48,749 nucleotides of DNA from an uncultured Candidatus Saccharibacteria bacterium (GTDB lineage Bacteria > Patescibacteriota > Saccharimonadia > Saccharimonadales > CAZLKQ01), in NCBI GenBank assembly GCA_964560175.1, contig CAZLKQ010000001.1:1-48749 (forward strand), in the 5' to 3' direction. Positions 31,896-41,486 of the stretch are shown in pieces. Positions within the stretch are counted from its first letter, which is position 1; each line of letters begins with the position of its first letter. The notes below the pieces were generated by a model that saw only the letters and a list, made by a program, of their open reading frames with translations, was not told where the DNA came from and searched no databases. The position numbers and the translations under genes were made by a program.

Positions 31896-32309
31896 GTGCC
31901 TACAATTAACCAATTAGTCCGAAATCCGCGCAAGAGCGCCAAGGCTAAATCGAAATCTCGGGCTCTACATAGCACCTATAATGCTCTGAAGATTCGCACC
32001 TATGAGAAAAATTCACCGCTGAAGCGTGGTGTTTGTATCAAAGTCACCACCAAGACACCAAAGAAACCAAACTCAGCGCTACGCAAAGTCGCCCGTGTCC
32101 GTTTGACCAATGGCCAAGAAGTCTGGGCCTATATCGGCGGCGAAGGCCACAATCTCCAAGAGCACGCAGTGGTTTTGATCCGAGGCGGTCGAGTACCAGA
32201 TCTGCCTGGAGTTCGTTACCATATTGTTCGAGGATCATTGGATCTCCAAGGCGTTCAAAATCGCAAAAACGGCCGCTCTAAATACGGCGCAAAAAAGGCC
32301 AGCAAATAA
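31896..32309 (+). CDS. rpsL: 30S ribosomal protein S12
   Basis: PTINQLVR...; [15 protein letters not shown]; GTG start. Confidence 0.96.
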
Positions 32310-32542
32310 TGGGCGAGGCAATGTGTCCAATGTTTGCAGACTGTAAGGCACAAAGTATCTCGAGAGAATACAGAGTGGGTTTAAACTCAGAAATGCCGCT
32401 TGGCATCAAGTATGTGATTACAGATATATGTAGGCTGGCAATTGAAAAACGGACGCAAAGCTGTCCAATTGTAAATATGAGTACAGAAGAGGAAATCCTT
32501 CTCCTACAAAAACGCGCAAATGGAGATTATAATGCCGCGTAA
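32309..32542 (+). CDS. 77-aa Cys-containing orphan ORF filling the rpsL-rpsG spacer
   Basis: TAATG overlap with the rpsL stop; 11-nt overlap with the rpsG start; 4 Cys (CPMFADC ... C ... SCP). Confidence 0.5.
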   Translation: MGEAMCPMFADCKAQSISREYRVGLNSEMPLGIKYVITDICRLAIEKRTQSCPIVNMSTEEEILLLQKRANGDYNAA

Positions 32543-33017
32543 AGTTACCAAATCGCTAAGACGAAATATTGCTCCAGATCGGATTTACGACTCTATCCTA
32601 GTACAGAAATTGATCAATAAAGTCATGCTGGCCGGAAAGAAAACTTTGGCAGAAAAATTAGTCTATTCTGCCATGGTAAAAGCTGCAGCTAATCTCAAAT
32701 CTGACAAACCGCTAGAAGTACTAGAAACCGCTATCAAAAATATCCGACCGCAACTGGAAGTGAAATCTCGCCGGATCGGTGGAGCAAACTACCAGATTCC
32801 TTTTGAAATCAAAGGCGAACGCCAAACCCATAAAGCTTTAATGTGGTTTATTGCTGCTGCCCGAGACCGCCGTAAATCAATGGGCAAGGACTTTGATGAA
32901 GCTCTAGCCGCTGAAATTGTCGATGCTTTCAATGAAACCGGCTCAGCTGTCAAGAAAAAAGAAGACACACATAAGATGGCTGAAGCGAATCGCGCCTTCG
33001 CCCACTTCGCTAGGTAA
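32532..33017 (+). CDS. rpsG: 30S ribosomal protein S7
   Basis: MPRKVTKS...; GGANYQIP; GGAG SD; start trimmed from ORF-track 32520. Confidence 0.95.
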   Translation: MPRKVTKSLRRNIAPDRIYDSILVQKLINKVMLAGKKTLAEKLVYSAMVKAAANLKSDKPLEVLETAIKNIRPQLEVKSRRIGGANYQIPFEIKGERQTHKALMWFIAAARDRRKSMGKDFDEALAAEIVDAFNETGSAVKKKEDTHKMAEANRAFAHFAR

Positions 33018-33022
33018 TTAAG

Positions 33023-33394
33023 ATGTCGGAAATGACTAGTGCTCTTCCCTGCAGTGATTGCCCTCGAAAGGCCAACCGTTTTGTAATCCGCACTTCAGGA
33101 ATAATATTAGAGGAACAAGGTGGAGTTATGTACGGCTATGTAAAACCTGACCGAAGGTCTCTTGTAATGGGTAGAATAAGCACCGCAGACTTAGAAGCGA
33201 ATTACCAAGATTTGGCTGCTTCTATCTATTTATGTGAAAGCCCAGTTACAATAACGCAACCAAAAGCCGGCCTACTGGGGCGGGTGGGCTTTAAGCGGGA
33301 GGTATTGGCATGCCCCGCGTTAAGGGAAGCAGTGGTAGAGAGAACTATTGCACGTATTGAAGAAATTAATAATCCTGAGGCGGGACATGACTGA
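33023..33394 (+). CDS. Orphan ORF A (123 aa) with PCxxCP motif
   Basis: LPCSDCPRKANRFVIR...; same strand, 5 nt after the rpsG stop. Confidence 0.55.
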   Translation: MSEMTSALPCSDCPRKANRFVIRTSGIILEEQGGVMYGYVKPDRRSLVMGRISTADLEANYQDLAASIYLCESPVTITQPKAGLLGRVGFKREVLACPALREAVVERTIARIEEINNPEAGHD

Positions 33395-33638
33395 GCTACT
33401 TAAAACTTTTGAATTTCCAGAAGCATGCGTTGGAAGTTGCCCCCAGATCGGCAGGTGGTTAAGCACCGTGGAACACTCAGATCCAGAAAGCTGGCGATAT
33501 ATAGAAGCAGTGAGTAAACTTAAAGGCTTGTCAGACATAGCCTGCGCTACTCAGTGTGGAGGACCGTGGGATGACCAAACAGAAATGGCCCCAGTCCTCT
33601 ATTGTTCAGGTAATCCAGGAAGTGATTACGGAGTTTAA
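33387..33638 (+). CDS. Orphan ORF B (83 aa), Cys-rich
   Basis: ATGACTGA overlap with ORF A; CVGSCP and CATQCGGP motifs. Confidence 0.5.
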   Translation: MTELLKTFEFPEACVGSCPQIGRWLSTVEHSDPESWRYIEAVSKLKGLSDIACATQCGGPWDDQTEMAPVLYCSGNPGSDYGV

Positions 33639-33639
33639 A

Positions 33640-34161
33640 ATGGCTGAGACACAAGAAATCGCCGTTGCCAGACCGCATATACCTTATACGGATGTTCCAG
33701 AATTAATAAAATGGCCATGCGAAAATTGCCCCAATAGGGTTAGTGTGACGGCTCGTATCAAGAGTGATTCTTTGCAAATTATGGACGGAGAATTGCAGAT
33801 TGAGGGAGTATGGGTGCCAGAAAATATTGATCCTCTGTCGCAACGAAAAGTAATTCTGGTCCAGTTAGGAAAGAAAGTAGCGGACTTATATGCTGAGGGA
33901 TGCACAGGTTCTCGTATCGAGGAAGATTGGTCACCGAATCATCGAGTCAGGCTGGATTACAACAGATGCAAATCCGAGTCGAGTGACGTACTCGAAAGAC
34001 TTGGTCGAGCCATGACCCCTGGCTGGGCTGGTTATTACGCTTTTGGGATGGGACTTATTAGGGAACAGATTTATACCGAGCCAGAACTTGCTATGTTAGC
34101 AGCGGAAAAAGCCAAATCCAAAGAAGAAGAGCGCCGAAGGCGAATGCGGGGACCTTACTAA
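33640..34161 (+). CDS. Orphan ORF C (173 aa) with PCxxCP motif and basic C-terminus
   Basis: GGAG SD, start AAATGGCTGAG; WPCENCPNRVSV resembles ORF A; its stop directly abuts the fusA ATG. Confidence 0.55.
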   Translation: MAETQEIAVARPHIPYTDVPELIKWPCENCPNRVSVTARIKSDSLQIMDGELQIEGVWVPENIDPLSQRKVILVQLGKKVADLYAEGCTGSRIEEDWSPNHRVRLDYNRCKSESSDVLERLGRAMTPGWAGYYAFGMGLIREQIYTEPELAMLAAEKAKSKEEERRRRMRGPY

Positions 34162-36231
34162 ATGGCTAAGACTCCGCTGGATAAAATCAGAAACATTGGG
34201 ATTATCGCGCATATCGATGCTGGTAAAACCACTACGACCGAAGCTGTTTTATACCGAACCGGACTAAAGCACAAGATCGGTGCTGTACACGAAGGTGAAA
34301 CTACTACTGACTGGATGGAGCAGGAACGCGAGCGTGGCATCACCATTACCTCGGCTGCTGTCACTTGTTTTTGGAAAGATCACCAGATCAATATCATCGA
34401 CACACCTGGCCATATCGACTTTACCGTCGAAGTCGAGAGATCTTTGCGCGTACTCGATGGCGCCATGACGGTTTTCGACGGGAAAATGGGAGTCGAGAGC
34501 CAGTCTGAAACAGTTTGGCGACAAGCCGACAAATACGGCGTGCCGCGAATCTGTTTTATCAACAAGATCAACCAAACCGGCGGTGATTTCTATAAATCCC
34601 TTGAGTCCATCCATACGCGTCTGACCAAACACGCTTACCCGATCCACCTGCCGATCGGCTTTGAGCAGTCAATCAATGGTGTCATCGACCTGATCGACAT
34701 GAAAGCCTACACCTACAAGGACTTCACTGACAAAGAATTGGTCGTCGGCGAAATACCCGAAGACATGAAAGAAAAGGCCGCCAAATACCGCTCTCATCTG
34801 GTCGAGGCTGCTCTGGGTGCCGATGACGACCTACTGATGAAATACTTGGACGGCACCGAAATCACCAATGAAGAGCTCAAATCTTGCATCCGCAAATCGA
34901 CGATCAAAGGTGACTTTTTCATCGTCTCGGGCGGCGATGGCCGGGGTGTGATCGTCGAGAAACTGCTCGATCTAATTGTTGACTATCTGCCAAATCCGCT
35001 GGAAGCCGGCTCAGTCTTTGGCACTCATCCCAAAACAGGTGATGAACTGGAGCGCAAACCCGATGTCAATGAACCGTTTTCCGCTCTGGCATTCAAGATC
35101 GCCACTGACCCCTTTGTCGGCAAACTGGCCTTTTTCAGAGTTTATTCCGGCTCGATGAAAGCCGGCAGTTACATCATGAATGCGGCAACCGGTGACAAAG
35201 AACGGGTCGGCCGGATCTTGCGCATGCACGCCAACGACCGGACCGATGTCGAGACGATCGAAGCCGGCGATATCGCCGCCGCGGTTGGCCTCAAAGGCAC
35301 AACTACCGGCAATACATTGTGCGACCCTGCTAACCCAATAATTTTAGAGTCGATCGACTTCCCAGACCCACCAGTTTCGATTGCGATAGAGCCCAAAACC
35401 AAGGCTGACCAAGAAAAAATGTCGATTGCCCTGCAGCGCCTAGCCGAGGAAGATCCGACTTTCCGAGTCCACAGCGACCACGAAACCGGCCAGACTATCA
35501 TTTCTGGCATGGGCGAGCTGCACCTGGAGATCATTGTCGATCGAATGAAAAGAGAATTCAAAGTCGAAGGTAGTGTAGGCCAACCACAAGTCGCTTACCG
35601 GGAGACCATTAAAGTTCAGACTGAGATAGAGGGTAAATATATCAAGCAAACTGGCGGTCGCGGCCAATATGGCCATGTCGTACTCCGGCTCGAGCCGCAA
35701 GAAGCCGGAGTAGGCTTCGAATTTGTCGATGCCATCAAGGGTGGTGTCGTGCCACAAGAGTACCGAAGCGCTGTCAAAAAAGGTATCGAAGATGCCATGG
35801 CAAATGGCGTCATTGCCGGCTACCCAGTAGTTGATGTCAAAGTAACTTTGACTGACGGCTCGTACCACGAAGTCGACTCCTCCGAGCTAGCCTTCACAAT
35901 GGCCGCTAGCCAAGCTTTACAAGCCGGAGTCAAAAAGGCTAACCCAGTACTACTGGAGCCGGTAATGAAAGTCGAAGTAGTGACTCCTGAGGAATTTATG
36001 GGTGACGTCATCGGCGACCTGAACGGCCGTCGCGGCCGGATCGAAGAAATGGAAGACCGGGCCGGCGTCAAAGTCGTCCACGCTTTCGTGCCACTTGGTG
36101 AAATGTTTGGCTACACCAATGATATCCGTTCGATGAGTCAAGGCCGAGCCAGCTCAACAATGGAGCTTGACCATTACGGCGAAGTACCGAATAATGTGGC
36201 CGAAGAAATCATTGCAAAACAAACTAAGTAG
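34162..36231 (+). CDS. fusA: Elongation factor G
   Basis: [14 protein letters not shown], NKxD; 689 aa. Confidence 0.97.
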
Positions 36232-36248
36232 TCATATTTTAGGTATAG

Positions 36249-36578
36249 ATGTCAAAAGATGTAGAAATTGAAGATAGGGCACAAGGCTACATCGATGCCT
36301 GTGCTTTCCTTGATCTAGAATATGCTAACTGTGACATAGTCGCTCAGGAATTTCGGGAAGTTTATGAGCGACGTAGTGTAGAACTGCTCGGCGCTTTTCA
36401 TGTGGACACGCTGAGAGTTACCACAAAAATGGGTGCCCAAATCCTACATACTACAGGGGTATTAGTGTCGATGGGTCCATCAATAGTGCATAGGCGTAAT
36501 AAATTTAGGCAAGTTATCGATGATGAGTCAGCCGGCCTGGCTGAAGCAGAAGAAATAATTGCCAAAAAAGGCAAATAA
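36249..36578 (+). CDS. Orphan ORF D (109 aa), apparently derived from the fusA 3' end
   Basis: C-terminus AEEIIAKKGK* versus [13 protein letters not shown]; N-terminus VEIEDRAQG..CAFLDLE versus [20 protein letters not shown]. Confidence 0.5.
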   Translation: MSKDVEIEDRAQGYIDACAFLDLEYANCDIVAQEFREVYERRSVELLGAFHVDTLRVTTKMGAQILHTTGVLVSMGPSIVHRRNKFRQVIDDESAGLAEAEEIIAKKGK

Positions 36579-36579
36579 A

Positions 36580-37125
36580 ATGATAAGAGGATCTCTTTAC
36601 GAATCAACTTCCTATCCTGTATTGGATTTGTTGGTCGGAGTTGAGAGTAATCCTGCCGCCGATACACTTTTGGCCCAGATCGAGACCGCGGCTGCAGTAG
36701 ATGTAAAGCTAAGACTAGACTACAACGCTACGCTGCCAAAACTCAACTTGGCGGGCGTTATTGACTTAATCGCTATGGGCGACGAAAGCCGGCTGAAAAA
36801 ATACGCACAACTAAAATTACTCCACGATGCCGTATCAACTCCTGAAGATTTAGCTTCAAAGAATGATTCTGTTGTCACCGAGTTGGAGTTGGCGGTGTCT
36901 GGCTTGCAGCAACGCAAAGGGGAGAGTCGAAGAGTGCGCCTTTTGCATAAACGAGCAGCAAAAACTCTCGACTATTACCAGAAGCACATGAGACGGCGCC
37001 CGTTTTCTACGCCCAATCTACTTACACTGCTTGATAGAGATTCAGAGATGTTTCTAGGGGCAGTTAATTTTATTGGCGAGTTGTCGTTGGTTGAAAGGAA
37101 AATAACAAAATCATTTTCGCCTTAA
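36580..37125 (+). CDS. Orphan ORF E (181 aa)
   Basis: ATG 1 nt after the ORF D stop; no family recognised. Confidence 0.5.
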   Translation: MIRGSLYESTSYPVLDLLVGVESNPAADTLLAQIETAAAVDVKLRLDYNATLPKLNLAGVIDLIAMGDESRLKKYAQLKLLHDAVSTPEDLASKNDSVVTELELAVSGLQQRKGESRRVRLLHKRAAKTLDYYQKHMRRRPFSTPNLLTLLDRDSEMFLGAVNFIGELSLVERKITKSFSP

Positions 37126-37236: not shown

Positions 37237-38421
37237 ATGGCAAATTTTGATCGCAGCAAACCACATGTAAACGTCGGTACCATGGGACACGTCGACCACG
37301 GCAAAACCACCCTGACTGCCGCTATTACGCACACCCTGAGCAAGCGATTGCCATCAGATATCAACAAACCGATCAATTTTGACCAGATCGACAACGCGCC
37401 CGAGGAAAAAGAACGCGGCATCACGATTGCTGTTTCACATCTGGAATATGAGTCTGAGAAGCGCCACTACGCCCACGTCGACATGCCCGGTCATGCCGAC
37501 TATATAAAGAATATGATCACAGGTGCCGCCCAGATTGATGGCGCCATTCTGGTTGTCTCAGCTGCTGACGGCCCAATGCCACAGACCCGTGAACATGTCC
37601 TACTGGCCCGCCAAGTCGGTGTGCCCTCGATCGTTGTCTTTCTAAACAAAATGGACATGGCTGATCCAGAACTAGTGGAGCTCGTCGAAGCCGATGTCCA
37701 GGAACTATTGACCAAGTACGAGTATGACGGTGACAAAACTCCGATTATCAAAGGTTCCGCCAAGAAAGCTCTCGAAGGCGATGAGAAGGAAATGGACAAC
37801 ATCATGGAGCTGGTCAAGGCTATCGATGAGCACATTCCTGAGCCAAAGCGTGATCTAGACAAACCATTCCTGATGGCCATCGAAGACGTTTTCTCGATCA
37901 AAGGCCGGGGCACCGTCGCTACAGGACGTGTCGAGCAAGGTATCGTCAAAGTCAATGAAACGGTCGAAATCGTCGGGATTCGTGATACTAAGAAATCAGT
38001 AGTTACCGGTGTTGAGATGTTTCGAAAAAACCTCGATCAAGGCCAGGCTGGCGACAATGTCGGTATTTTGCTACGGGGAATTGAAAAAGAAGATATCGAG
38101 CGCGGCCAAGTTTTGGCAAAACCCGGCACTATCACTCCACACACCGAATTTGACGCTGAAGTCTACATCCTGACAAAGGAAGAGGGCGGTCGTCACACGC
38201 CGTTTTTCAAAGGCTACAAGCCACAATTTTACTTCCGCACCACTGATGTGACTGGTGAAGTTGAGCTACCGGCTGATACAGAAATGGTCATGCCAGGTGA
38301 CACCATTACCTTCAAGGTCAAATTGATCCAAGCTATCGCTATGGACCAAGGCCAACGTTTTGCTATCCGCGAAGGCGGCAAGACCGTCGGCGCTGGCGTC
38401 GTAACGAAAATTAACAAATAA
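37237..38421 (+). CDS. tuf: Elongation factor Tu
   Basis: [18 protein letters not shown]; 394 aa. Confidence 0.97.
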
Positions 38422-38458: not shown

Positions 38459-38743
38459 ATGACAGAAACTTCACGACAACAGACCCCAGAAGAAATGACT
38501 CGATCAAGAATTGCTCTTTACCGTCATGCTGCTGCTGGTGGATACGATGTTCATCAATGGGGTACCAAGGAAGGCGAGATATATCATGAAGTTTTTGCGC
38601 AATCCGGTGATGAAATCCCAGATGCAAATTTTACTTATCTAGAGCCAATTTTGGAGCATGAAATAGTATATCTTGGCTCGTTGACTCCCAAAGGAGCAAA
38701 AGAGATTGCTGATCAATTGGAGGAGATTTTACTAAATGGCTGA
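38459..38743 (+). CDS. Orphan ORF F (94 aa)
   Basis: No family recognised; its stop lies inside a copy of the rpsJ start sequence. Confidence 0.5.
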   Translation: MTETSRQQTPEEMTRSRIALYRHAAAGGYDVHQWGTKEGEIYHEVFAQSGDEIPDANFTYLEPILEHEIVYLGSLTPKGAKEIADQLEEILLNG

Positions 38744-38755
38744 GGAAGTAAAATC

Positions 38756-39037
38756 ATGAGTTTGACGACAACTGATTTTCAAGAAATTCGAACTATTGTT
38801 CGTGAGGAAGTTGAAAGCATTGTAGAAGCGAAATTGAATCCACTCAGAAATGAGCTACAGGCTCTTCGTAATGATATAAAAGAAATTTACAACAGGCTGG
38901 TTAAACTCGAATCGCCTGTATTTACAAATAAGGAATTTAATAAATTACCACTAGAGAAAAGACTTCTGACATTAAATTCTGATTTGTTGGCGATGGCTAA
39001 AGAAATTGGTTTATCACTTCCAAGGAACACAAATTAA
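38756..39037 (+). CDS. Orphan ORF G (93 aa), coiled coil, paralog of ORF 7565
   Basis: MSLTTTDFQEIRTIVREEVES versus MNLTNDDLKSIKKVVSDSIDE. Preceded by the 7-codon remnant MAEEVKS*, coupled through an ATGA overlap. Confidence 0.55.
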   Translation: MSLTTTDFQEIRTIVREEVESIVEAKLNPLRNELQALRNDIKEIYNRLVKLESPVFTNKEFNKLPLEKRLLTLNSDLLAMAKEIGLSLPRNTN

Positions 39038-39391
39038 ATGGCTGAGGAAATTCGCGTACAACAGATGGATGAGCCACAGGATTGGGTGAAGAAACTGCGT
39101 GGAGCTGACAAGTTAGCATACGATGAGGTTCGCGAGGAGAGTATCGGAGAAATAGCAGAGGTTTACAAACAGCGGCTAAAAGAATTTGTTGATGAAATTA
39201 CTGAGATTGGAGCGGAGGAAGCCATCGCTCATAGAGCAACAAGGCTAGCAACTAATACCAGAGACTCTTTTGAAGCCGGCATCCAAGTTGGCATGGACAG
39301 CGAACGTGAGTATCGGCAACAACTGGCTCGTAGAGAAAGAGAAGAGCATGCCTCCTTTCAGAGAAATGTCATCGGAAATTGGGCTGGCTGA
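39038..39391 (+). CDS. Orphan ORF H (117 aa), acidic, helical
   Basis: Starts with ATGGCTGAGGAA, identical to the rpsJ start; TGATG overlap with rpsJ. Confidence 0.55.
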
Positions 39392-39729
39392 TGGCTGAGG
39401 AAACTGCAAAAGTAGTTCCAGCTGGCGTACCAAGGATCAGGATTCGACTGAAGGCTTATGATCACAAAGTGATCGACCTGTCGGCCAAGCAAATTATCGA
39501 TACTGCGGAGCGCACTGGTGCTACAGTGGCCGGACCGATTCCGTTGCCAACCAAGCGGAGTGTATACACGGTTATCAAGAGTCCTCATGTCTATAAAAAG
39601 GCTCGTGAGCAATTCGAAATGCGCGTACACAAACGACTGATTGATATCAGTAATCCGACTCCAAAAACCATCGATTCTCTCCAGAATCTGTCTCTACCTG
39701 CCGGCTGCGACGCCGAAATCAAAATGTAG
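39391..39729 (+). CDS. rpsJ: 30S ribosomal protein S10
   Basis: [21 protein letters not shown]...GPIPLPT; start trimmed to MAEE. Confidence 0.93.
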
Positions 39730-39878
39730 TGGCAATAACTCCCTTTTGTGACAGGTGCGGCGAGGAACTAAAGAAATTTGGGGCAATCCTGTTTAGCCCG
39801 CCAAATGCTAAAAGTGTTGTCAAAAAACTACATGTATGCGTTGATTGCTATAAAGAAATAGTTAAAACTTTCAAATAG
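39729..39878 (+). CDS. 49-aa zinc-ribbon micro-protein
   Basis: GTG start overlapping the rpsJ TAG (TAGTG); [13 protein letters not shown]...VCVDCYKE has two CxxC pairs; below the ORF-track cutoff. Confidence 0.45.
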
Positions 39879-39958
39879 GTATTGCTCATGCTTGCAAATC
39901 GGGTAAGTATATACCAAGCTAATCGAATGAATGAAAAAAAAGGTTAAAGTAGTAATTT

Positions 39959-40336
39959 ATGACCGCTGAACATAATATTAACCAAGCGCAGCTATATTAT
40001 GAAATACGTGAGCAATTTACAGAAATGCGCGAATCATTTTCAGCTGAGCGGACAGCATACTTAGAACTATTACTCTCCTTGGAAGGTGTTCCCGTAAGTG
40101 CTTCGTATAGGTTTCGGTATGTCAAAGAACCCGGGGAGTTTGGTCGCGGTGGACATCTAACAGACTTATTACAACCTGTTGATAGGCAAGCTGTGAAAGT
40201 AGTCATCTCGGAAGTAGGTGAATCAAATTTAGGTGTGCGTATAGTAAGAGAAAACGGATCACCAAATAATTTTGTTGAGATTGTTGCTTTTGACGACTTT
40301 GAATTGTTAGAGATAAGTAGCAACAACGCAAACTAA
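39959..40336 (+). CDS. Orphan ORF J (125 aa)
   Basis: No family recognised; AT-rich; flanked by the 16-nt repeat GTATTGCTCATGCTTG. Confidence 0.5.
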   Translation: MTAEHNINQAQLYYEIREQFTEMRESFSAERTAYLELLLSLEGVPVSASYRFRYVKEPGEFGRGGHLTDLLQPVDRQAVKVVISEVGESNLGVRIVRENGSPNNFVEIVAFDDFELLEISSNNAN

Positions 40337-40472
40337 TCGCAAAAGTATTGCTCATGCTTGTCACATATTGACAGTGATATAATTTTGGTATGAATCCCGT
40401 TAGAACTAAGTATTTTATCGAAGACAAAACCTGCCGCTTTTTAATTAGCGTAAAAAACGGAGTTCTAACGGG

Positions 40473-40739
40473 ATGAATAACGTATCTTTGTCCTTACCAT
40501 TTCTCATTCAAGGCGATAGCCCACAGCACAAGGCCATGAGGCGTCATCAGTTGTATGATTTACTCGAAAAAGACAATGAACTGCTAGCGGATATTCTCGA
40601 CCTTCAACGCAAGCTGGCTAAGAAAAAAGATAAGGAGTCTCGCGAATTAGTTGACGAGCTCGGTGAAATCGTTCAGGAATTTCTCGGTCTGAATCGTCAA
40701 AAATTAGAACTTACCAAGGCCATCAATAAAGATACCTAA
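40473..40739 (+). CDS. Orphan ORF K (88 aa), coiled coil
   Basis: Its start is sequestered in a perfect 14-bp inverted repeat and coupled (ATGA) to a 28-codon uORF at 40390-40476. Confidence 0.5.
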   Translation: MNNVSLSLPFLIQGDSPQHKAMRRHQLYDLLEKDNELLADILDLQRKLAKKKDKESRELVDELGEIVQEFLGLNRQKLELTKAINKDT

Positions 40740-40741
40740 TT

Positions 40742-41053
40742 ATGCCCACGATACCTAAACGTCAATTTGACGAGGTGGGCAACGAATTAGCTGGTTTACA
40801 ATCGGAAACCATAGAGAGTAAATCAGCAGATACGCCGATAGTCGAACAGACCAGAGATGTTATAGCGCGTACGGTGGTGCAAACTTTCTTTTTGCTGCTA
40901 GGTGTAATTCTGATCGGCGTGCCGGTCTACAATGCCAATGTAGCCAGCGATCTCCGACTTGATCTACCTGATCTGCTGCAACAATATTCAGCGATTTTGG
41001 GCCCTGTGCTAGGCTTTGTCATCGGCTACTATTTCAAGAGCAAAAATGACTAA
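40742..41053 (+). CDS. Orphan ORF L (103 aa), two TM helices
   Basis: VVQTFFLLLGVILIGVPVY and ILGPVLGFVIGYYF. Confidence 0.5.
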   Translation: MPTIPKRQFDEVGNELAGLQSETIESKSADTPIVEQTRDVIARTVVQTFFLLLGVILIGVPVYNANVASDLRLDLPDLLQQYSAILGPVLGFVIGYYFKSKND

Positions 41054-41486
41054 TCTCGAAGGCTGCAAATTTTGTGATCCTAAAAGTGAAGATCTAAGAC
41101 CACGCTTAATTAATCTCGGCAGCTGGTGTTATTCAGCTTTATCCAATCCTCGCATAACTCGCGGACATGCTCTGGTGATTCCGAACCGACACGTTGAGGA
41201 CCCAACTGAAGTTGATGAAAGAGATTTTATATACATACAAAGAGAGATCATAAAATTACAGAGGAAAATTCTGCTCGAAATTGCTCCGGGTGTTGATGTT
41301 TGGCAAAAATATCAGCCGTTTGTCGAGGAAGGGCACGCAGGAACAAAAATGAACCATGTTCATTATCACGTGATTCCCAGAAATCCTGCCGACGGTTTAC
41401 TGATGTCACCCGAACCAGGAACCGATACATTCTCGCCGCTTTGCGAAGAAGAGCGTATCGACATGCTCGAAATTTTGGGACCATAA
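41046..41486 (+). CDS. HIT (histidine triad) family protein
   Basis: HVHYHVIPR triad; ATGACTAA overlap with ORF L; start trimmed from 41016. Confidence 0.78.
   Translation: MTNLEGCKFCDPKSEDLRPRLINLGSWCYSALSNPRITRGHALVIPNRHVEDPTEVDERDFIYIQREIIKLQRKILLEIAPGVDVWQKYQPFVEEGHAGTKMNHVHYHVIPRNPADGLLMSPEPGTDTFSPLCEEERIDMLEILGP

Follow-up and report, generated by a model that had tools for sequence, protein, structure and literature searches.

The window analysed here is a 48,749-nt stretch of Saccharibacteria DNA that carries rpoB, rpoC, rpsL, rpsG, fusA, tuf, rpsJ and the S10 operon. It belongs to a 525-kb assembly, 77% complete; no other genome in the search set comes from the same family. The genes follow the order and strand of the canonical str operon (rpsL-rpsG-fusA-tuf), and the spacer between rpsG and fusA, the genes for ribosomal protein S7 and elongation factor EF-G, is 1144 nt long and fully coding. 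It is occupied by three open reading frames, ORFs A, B and C, each in its own frame (2, then 3, then 1; Table 1). The longest rpsG frame opens at 32520, yet the S7 consensus start MPRKV, with GGAG-N6 in front of it, falls at ATG 32532, which is the likely start of the gene; its TAA stop occupies 33015-33017.

The ATG of A at 33023 lies 5 nt past the rpsG stop. A and B overlap by 8 nt (ATGACTGA), a single nucleotide separates B from C, and the stop of C abuts the fusA start codon at 34162 (TAAATG). This packing had been described in an earlier, sequence-only reading of the locus, and it proved exact when the coordinates were re-derived. All of the motifs quoted in that reading were also recovered, namely LPCSDCPRKANRFVIR and GGVMYGYVKP in A, CVGSCP and CATQCGGP in B, and WPCENCPNRVSVTARI and EERRRRMRGPY in C.

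Table 1. Features of the str operon and its junctions in the window.
Feature	Position	Strand	Details
rpsL	31896-32309		
Orphan ORF filling the rpsL-rpsG spacer	32309..32542	+	77 aa; pI 5.3; Cys 6, 12, 41, 52
rpsG (ribosomal protein S7)	32532..33017	+	Upstream anchor; Pfam Ribosomal_S7, E=1.4e-51
ORF A	33023..33394	+	ATG to TGA; 123 aa; pI 5.9; Cys 10, 13, 71, 97
P-C-S-D-C-P knuckle of A	33047..33064	+	Residues 9-14
GAGG Shine-Dalgarno-like site	33377..33380	+	6 nt ahead of B start
ORF B	33387..33638	+	ATG to TAA; 83 aa; pI 4.3; Cys 14, 18, 53, 57, 73
C-V-G-S-C-P knuckle of B	33426..33443	+	Residues 14-19
GGAG Shine-Dalgarno site	33630..33633	+	6 nt ahead of C start; form as before rpsG
ORF C	33640..34161	+	ATG to TAA; 173 aa; pI 5.8; basic C-terminal tail
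P-C-E-N-C-P knuckle of C	33715..33732	+	Residues 26-31
fusA (EF-G)	34162..36231	+	Downstream anchor; ATG at 34162
Orphan ORFs between fusA and tuf	36249-37125	+	109 and 188 aa
tuf	37237-38421		
Orphan ORFs between tuf and rpsJ	38459-39391	+	94, 93 and 117 aa
Orphan ORFs between rpsJ and rplC	39729-41486	+	Several
Basic CxxC...CxxC ORF	39729-39878		49 aa; immediately 3' of rpsJ
HIT-domain gene	41016-41486		

The tiling of the rpsG-fusA gap by A, B and C is far beyond chance. On the plus strand, 99.6% of the spacer falls within ATG-initiated reading frames that are 60 or more codons long, and on the minus strand 19% does, against a mean of 6.7% and a maximum of 69% in 5000 composition-matched first-order Markov sequences. 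No promoter-like or terminator-like sites were found inside the block, an Rfam search of it at E ≤ 1 matched no family, and searches with blastn, tblastx and tblastn returned neither paralogues elsewhere nor copies of the flanking genes. No repeats were found flanking the block, and a mobile-element origin is therefore not favoured. GC skew is positive throughout 33050-34100 (0.13-0.22) and again at 36200-36650, and close to zero in the flanking conserved genes; GC content in the block is slightly below that of the flanks, at 0.44-0.48.

B and C are each preceded by a GAGG/GGAG-N6-ATG site of the same type as that of rpsG. A has only an AGG-N8 in front of its ATG, and fusA lacks a canonical Shine-Dalgarno (SD) site 3-11 nt before its start codon. 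The 3' end of the 16S rRNA (GGATCACCTCCT) was not found among the 33 contigs of the genome. The proposal that small Cys-motif genes are made here together with S7 and EF-G thus has several features in its favour: all three lie on the operon strand, with no internal promoter or terminator detected, B and C have ribosome binding sites, and C runs directly into fusA. The second half of that proposal, association of the products with the ribosome, fared less well and is taken up below.

Homology marks C as a real gene. A search of 5.8 billion proteins returned a metagenomic homologue of 165 aa (P0002; 57% BLASTP identity), and an exhaustive HMMER search added a second of 169 aa (P0004), also metagenomic. 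In the three-member alignment (A2), C is 55% identical to P0002 and 48% to P0004, and all three share one start Met. Cys 27, 30, 88 and 110 are invariant in this family, and the W-P-C-x-x-C-P-N-R motif, a C-x-G motif and the basic tail are kept as well; the two homologues have a pI of 9.1 and 8.3. A further candidate, P0005 (332 aa, E=1.2e-6), is a repeat protein whose match is apparently due to its repeats, and it was set aside. The C profile, run against metagenome contigs from JGI and genome contigs from GTDB, gave no match, and nothing usable came from a PDB sequence search with this profile or from searches of the ESM Atlas with C and A.

B is probably a real gene too, judging from two relatives. 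A word-index protein search with B matched B alone. When 400 Saccharimonadales genomes were searched in all six frames, a weak match emerged that led to a 91-aa ORF (L115:1486-1758, genome G279), which pairs reciprocally with B by BLASTP at E=2e-8, and this ORF in turn led to a third member of 111 aa (L119:928-1260, minus strand, genome G400). The alignment of the three (A4) has C14, C18, C57, C73, P19, S31-D32-P33 and G59 invariant, giving a common pattern of E-[LF]-P-x-x-C-x3-C-P, S-D-P, C-x-G and a fourth Cys. Both relatives sit between fusA and tuf rather than between rpsG and fusA, and they come from two other Saccharimonadales families; one mini-gene family thus occupies different str-operon junctions across lineages. 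As the homologues of B and C retain four invariant Cys, a Cys4 metal site is plausible in both.

These families also bear on whether the block could be a single ancestral gene of about 380 aa, split by two +1 frameshifts that would mark either a pseudogene or an assembly error. The succession of frames 2, 3 and 1 would fit such an event, as would the overlaps of 47 and 83 nt between neighbouring open frames. However, the homologues of C are stand-alone proteins of 165-169 aa with the same start Met, those of B are stand-alone ORFs of 91 and 111 aa, and an SD site of its own precedes each of B and C. Because the homologues of B and C stand alone, we reject the single broken gene as largely refuted and regard it as extremely unlikely.

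A is the least certain member of the block. The existing gene call is an 88-aa form matching 72% of A, which most likely starts at Met36 (33128). Whether A begins there or at ATG 33023 is uncertain, and the Met36 start would remove the N-terminal CxxC. No homologue of A was found in any search, including one of 400 other genomes of the order; a match in genome G137 contained 7 stops and was set aside. The sequence-only reading had proposed looking for the trio in related genomes, and the outcome was negative: a search of about 400 Saccharimonadales genomes did not turn up the trio as such. A and the C family were each seen in 0 of 400 other genomes of the order, and two of about 400 had a member of the B family.

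The relationship among the three ORFs is best seen in their cysteines. A and C have exactly four Cys each, with an identical C-2-C-57-C spacing (C-2-C-57-C-25-C in A, C-2-C-57-C-21-C in C), and the corresponding spacing in B is C-3-C-38-C-15-C. The P-C-x-x-C-P motif occurs 5 times in the six frames of the 525-kb genome and, within long open frames, in A and C only; C-x-x-C-P does not occur at all in the 117,867 aa of the genome's long proteins. The common N-terminal pattern of A and C that had been pointed out earlier is borne out by a rare motif and by Cys spacing, but profile comparison found nothing beyond the motif. BLASTP aligned A and C over P-C-x-x-C-P alone (E=0.035), hhalign of A against the C family gave 8 columns at a probability of 6%, and in a shuffle test with Cys and motif held fixed A had no further similarity to C, P0002 or P0004 (p 0.10-0.75). 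The B and C profiles have colinear D-P-x-S-x-R, C-x-G and C-[NKS] elements, which were not significant by hhalign (P=0.18), and none of the pairs A-C, B-C and A-B was significantly related by this method. Absence of A/C homology in profile comparison had been named in advance as one half of what would refute the idea, and that absence was found; the rare motif and the spacing nevertheless still favour a link. We read the link as real, reflecting either tandem duplication or membership of the same structural class, a choice and a claim that sequence statistics cannot prove. That A and C may be diverged tandem duplicates is accordingly suggested rather than demonstrated.

Codon usage scores were 0.03 for A, -0.05 for B and 0.07 for C, between the mean of true genes (0.28) and that of spurious frames (-0.08), and so do not confirm that the three are coding. 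The score of C, a demonstrably real gene, is as low as that of A. Structure prediction, another of the checks proposed earlier, was of no help: AlphaFold models reached a pLDDT of 53.7 for C with its 3-sequence alignment and 42.6 for A alone, too poor for a fold search.

The rpsG-fusA junction is unusual throughout the Saccharimonadales. At 33 loci from outside the Saccharibacteria the spacer measures 24-166 nt, with one outlier of 2052 nt. In Saccharimonadales it spans 12 to more than 3000 nt overall, with 12-37 nt in a few genomes, 180-640 nt in most and up to 730-2240 nt in the longest group. At 19 of 46 Saccharibacteria loci there was no EF-G match in the sequence of up to 3 kb downstream of rpsG, a few of these loci ending early at contig ends. 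Where the spacer measures 150-700 nt (40 loci), the longest run without a stop takes up a median of 91% of the operon strand and 56% of the other strand, and the operon-strand run is the longer in 39 of 40 (p=4e-8, a value that, like all p-values across these loci, is overstated because related genomes are not independent).

The ORFs that fill this slot have much in common in character and little in sequence. Nearly all are singletons by phmmer and 49 of 54 match no Pfam family, the exceptions being DUF520 (three), SPW and a pilin-type N-methylation motif. They are acidic (median pI 5.0) and rich in cysteine, which makes up 2.0% of their residues against 0.47% in ordinary proteins, an approximately fourfold difference; at least four Cys are present in 22 of 58 slot ORFs compared with 12 of 915 chunks of ordinary proteins. 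A C-x-x-C-P knuckle with a two-plus-two Cys layout recurs in several; Cys positions are 18, 21, 82 and 101 at locus L022 and 19, 22, 83 and 102 at locus L029. Comparisons of class subfamilies with hhalign gave P-values from 0.0014 to 0.76, with the motif and the Cys spacing alone in common. A, B and C share the features of this junction mini-gene class, a grouping not published as a family: they are same-strand ORFs that fill the spacer and that are small, orphan, non-basic, soluble and four-Cys. The slot can also be vacant: in the genome whose S7 comes closest (73-74% identity) the spacer is 34-37 nt and holds no ORF of at least 30 aa.

A DUF520 (YajQ-like) gene of 164 aa lies in the rpsG-fusA slot of L066 (Candidatus Nanosynbacter), L068 and L076. 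The spacer of L032 (genome G005) holds, at about 2037-2138 in the rpsG orientation, a duplicate of the segment coding for the S7 C terminus; it covers residues ~128-165, is 82% identical to the S7 of the window and follows a match to S7 that stops at residue 143. The duplicate could be the footprint of insertions entering the junction, or it could reflect a disrupted rpsG.

The survey also allows a reading to be weighed in which the DNA is kept open solely so that ribosomes can travel from rpsG to fusA, leaving A, and possibly B, without function. Exact tiling, a fusA without its own canonical SD site, atypical codon usage, the singleton status of A and low-confidence structure predictions all agree with this. 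On the other hand, it leaves conserved cysteines unexplained: B and C keep invariant Cys and conserved motifs at 28-57% identity, and slot ORFs in general are enriched in Cys to the extent given above. Moreover, in just 15 of the 52 slot-bearing loci does the upstream stop fall between -4 and +10 nt relative to the fusA ATG, and an SD site before fusA is kept in 37 of the 52. Strict stop-start coupling to fusA is too infrequent for a general model of bridging ORFs, which was rejected, and we consider it distinctly unlikely that A, B and C are no more than bridging or partly spurious frames.

Similar genes are found at other junctions of the str/S10 string. The 77-aa orphan ORF between rpsL and rpsG overlaps rpsG by 11 nt and has the CP-containing Cys motifs that had been attributed to it, two of its four Cys preceding Pro; it is of the same junction mini-gene class as A, B and C. 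An expanded rpsL-rpsG spacer was seen in eight relatives at nine loci (two apparently from one genome), with a single ORF in each. These ORFs begin on the rpsL stop and finish at the rpsG start, and five of them carry 4-5 Cys. Same-strand orphan ORFs are present at every other str/S10 junction of the window (Table 1); those at the fusA-tuf, tuf-rpsJ and rpsJ-rplC junctions are mostly acidic and Cys-free.

Known families offer no name for any of the three. At E ≤ 1, Pfam and NCBIfam gave no match for B or C and a single chance-level one for A (T3SS_NleG, E=0.13), with no ribosomal family among the results. Nothing significant for the block was returned by PHROGs or PADLOC, no TM-like segments were found in A, B or C, and the C4 zinc finger of DksA/TraR (Pfam zf-dskA_traR) matched none of them. 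A literature search found no description of A, B, C or such junction genes. What is new here is that three such genes form one block, that motif and spacing link A with C, and that the B family lies between fusA and tuf in the two other genomes with members.

The Cys4 patterns of A, B and C resemble those of the C+ (Cys4 zinc) ribosomal proteins and of the FusB zinc domain. The C+ ribosomal proteins bL31, bL32, bL33, bL36, uS14 and bS18 are likewise small, with two Cys pairs, are encoded in or near ribosomal operons and are expressed alongside ribosomal genes. They differ in being strongly basic, conserved in bacteria generally and covered by Pfam and NCBIfam models; A, B and C range from acidic to neutral, are hypervariable and lineage-restricted, and match no model. 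FusB and FusC are EF-G-binding accessory proteins with a four-Cys zinc domain, FusB being a two-domain protein of about 210 aa, and may offer a functional analogy for a gene adjoining fusA; at the thresholds used, neither the three ORFs nor the other slot ORFs matched their Pfam domains.

These likenesses invite the view that A, B and C are new zinc-binding proteins associated with the ribosome or EF-G, either extra ribosomal proteins or FusB-like binders. Its chief argument is position. The genes lie between, and are coupled to, those for S7 and EF-G, and the class recurs specifically at junctions beside S12, S7, EF-G and EF-Tu; the Cys4 patterns could be read by analogy with the C+ ribosomal proteins and the FusB zinc domain, and a basic C-terminal tail is kept in C and its homologues. 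Saccharibacteria also lack bL9, uL30 and usually bL32, in a report that does not mention the junction ORFs (PMC9297842). The view is weakened by acidity, by turnover and by the fact that the slot can be empty. The composition of A and B is acidic and that of C close to neutral, the Pfam and NCBIfam searches were empty except for the chance-level match of A, and the slot proteins are hypervariable and patchy; their place can be taken by DUF520, SPW or pilin-like genes or left empty, as in the short spacer beside the most similar S7. The term "ribosome-associated" in the sequence-only reading therefore finds no backing: the pI values are 5.9, 4.3 and 5.8, no ribosomal family is matched, the B homologues are located between fusA and tuf, and relatives carry unrelated genes or none in the slot. 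We consider a role on the ribosome or EF-G unlikely.

The same turnover could be taken to indicate conflict. Mini-proteins of this kind might shield or modulate S12, S7, EF-G and EF-Tu against inhibitors from an actinobacterial host, or be cargo of phage/host conflict. Extreme turnover, orphan status, small acidic products and exchange between junctions are the pattern expected of arms-race genes, and an epibiotic lifestyle on Actinomyces is described for these bacteria (PMC9297842). PADLOC and PHROGs, however, gave nothing significant, and no repeats or mobile-element hallmarks flank the block. We regard such cargo as improbable here. In its most specific form, and by analogy with FusB, a clade-wide set of diversifying Cys4 zinc mini-proteins would bind S12, S7, EF-G and EF-Tu and protect or tune them against host inhibitors, the trio being an expanded arsenal; this we would put forward as very improbable speculation.

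The explanation that we favour, with moderate confidence, treats A, B and C as four-Cys mini-proteins that are accessory, probably bind zinc and are carried on the str operon, and the block as a tripled version of a fast-turnover slot found across the order. They would be small, soluble, cytoplasmic proteins transcribed within the str operon and translated through coupling and SD sites, with C passing ribosomes straight to fusA. A loose architecture appears to be common to all three, consisting of an N-terminal C-x(2-3)-C-P knuckle and two distal Cys. From the four Cys, a Cys4 zinc site stabilising a small binding fold is the most likely arrangement. Under this explanation the three would be lineage-specific cargo exploiting a strong constitutive operon, and not core ribosomal proteins.

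A tiny genome (<1 Mb) thus spends 1.1 kb of a highly conserved and highly expressed operon on three orphan four-cysteine proteins, and the same junctions across the order house an ever-changing set of mini-genes. Whichever role these genes have, standard annotation misses or mis-starts them. Should A, B and C have S7, EF-G or the ribosome as their target, they would represent a new, lineage-specific layer of translation control or protection in episymbionts. If they have no role in translation, the slot would show how reduced, promoter-poor genomes get new genes expressed by inserting them in essential operons.
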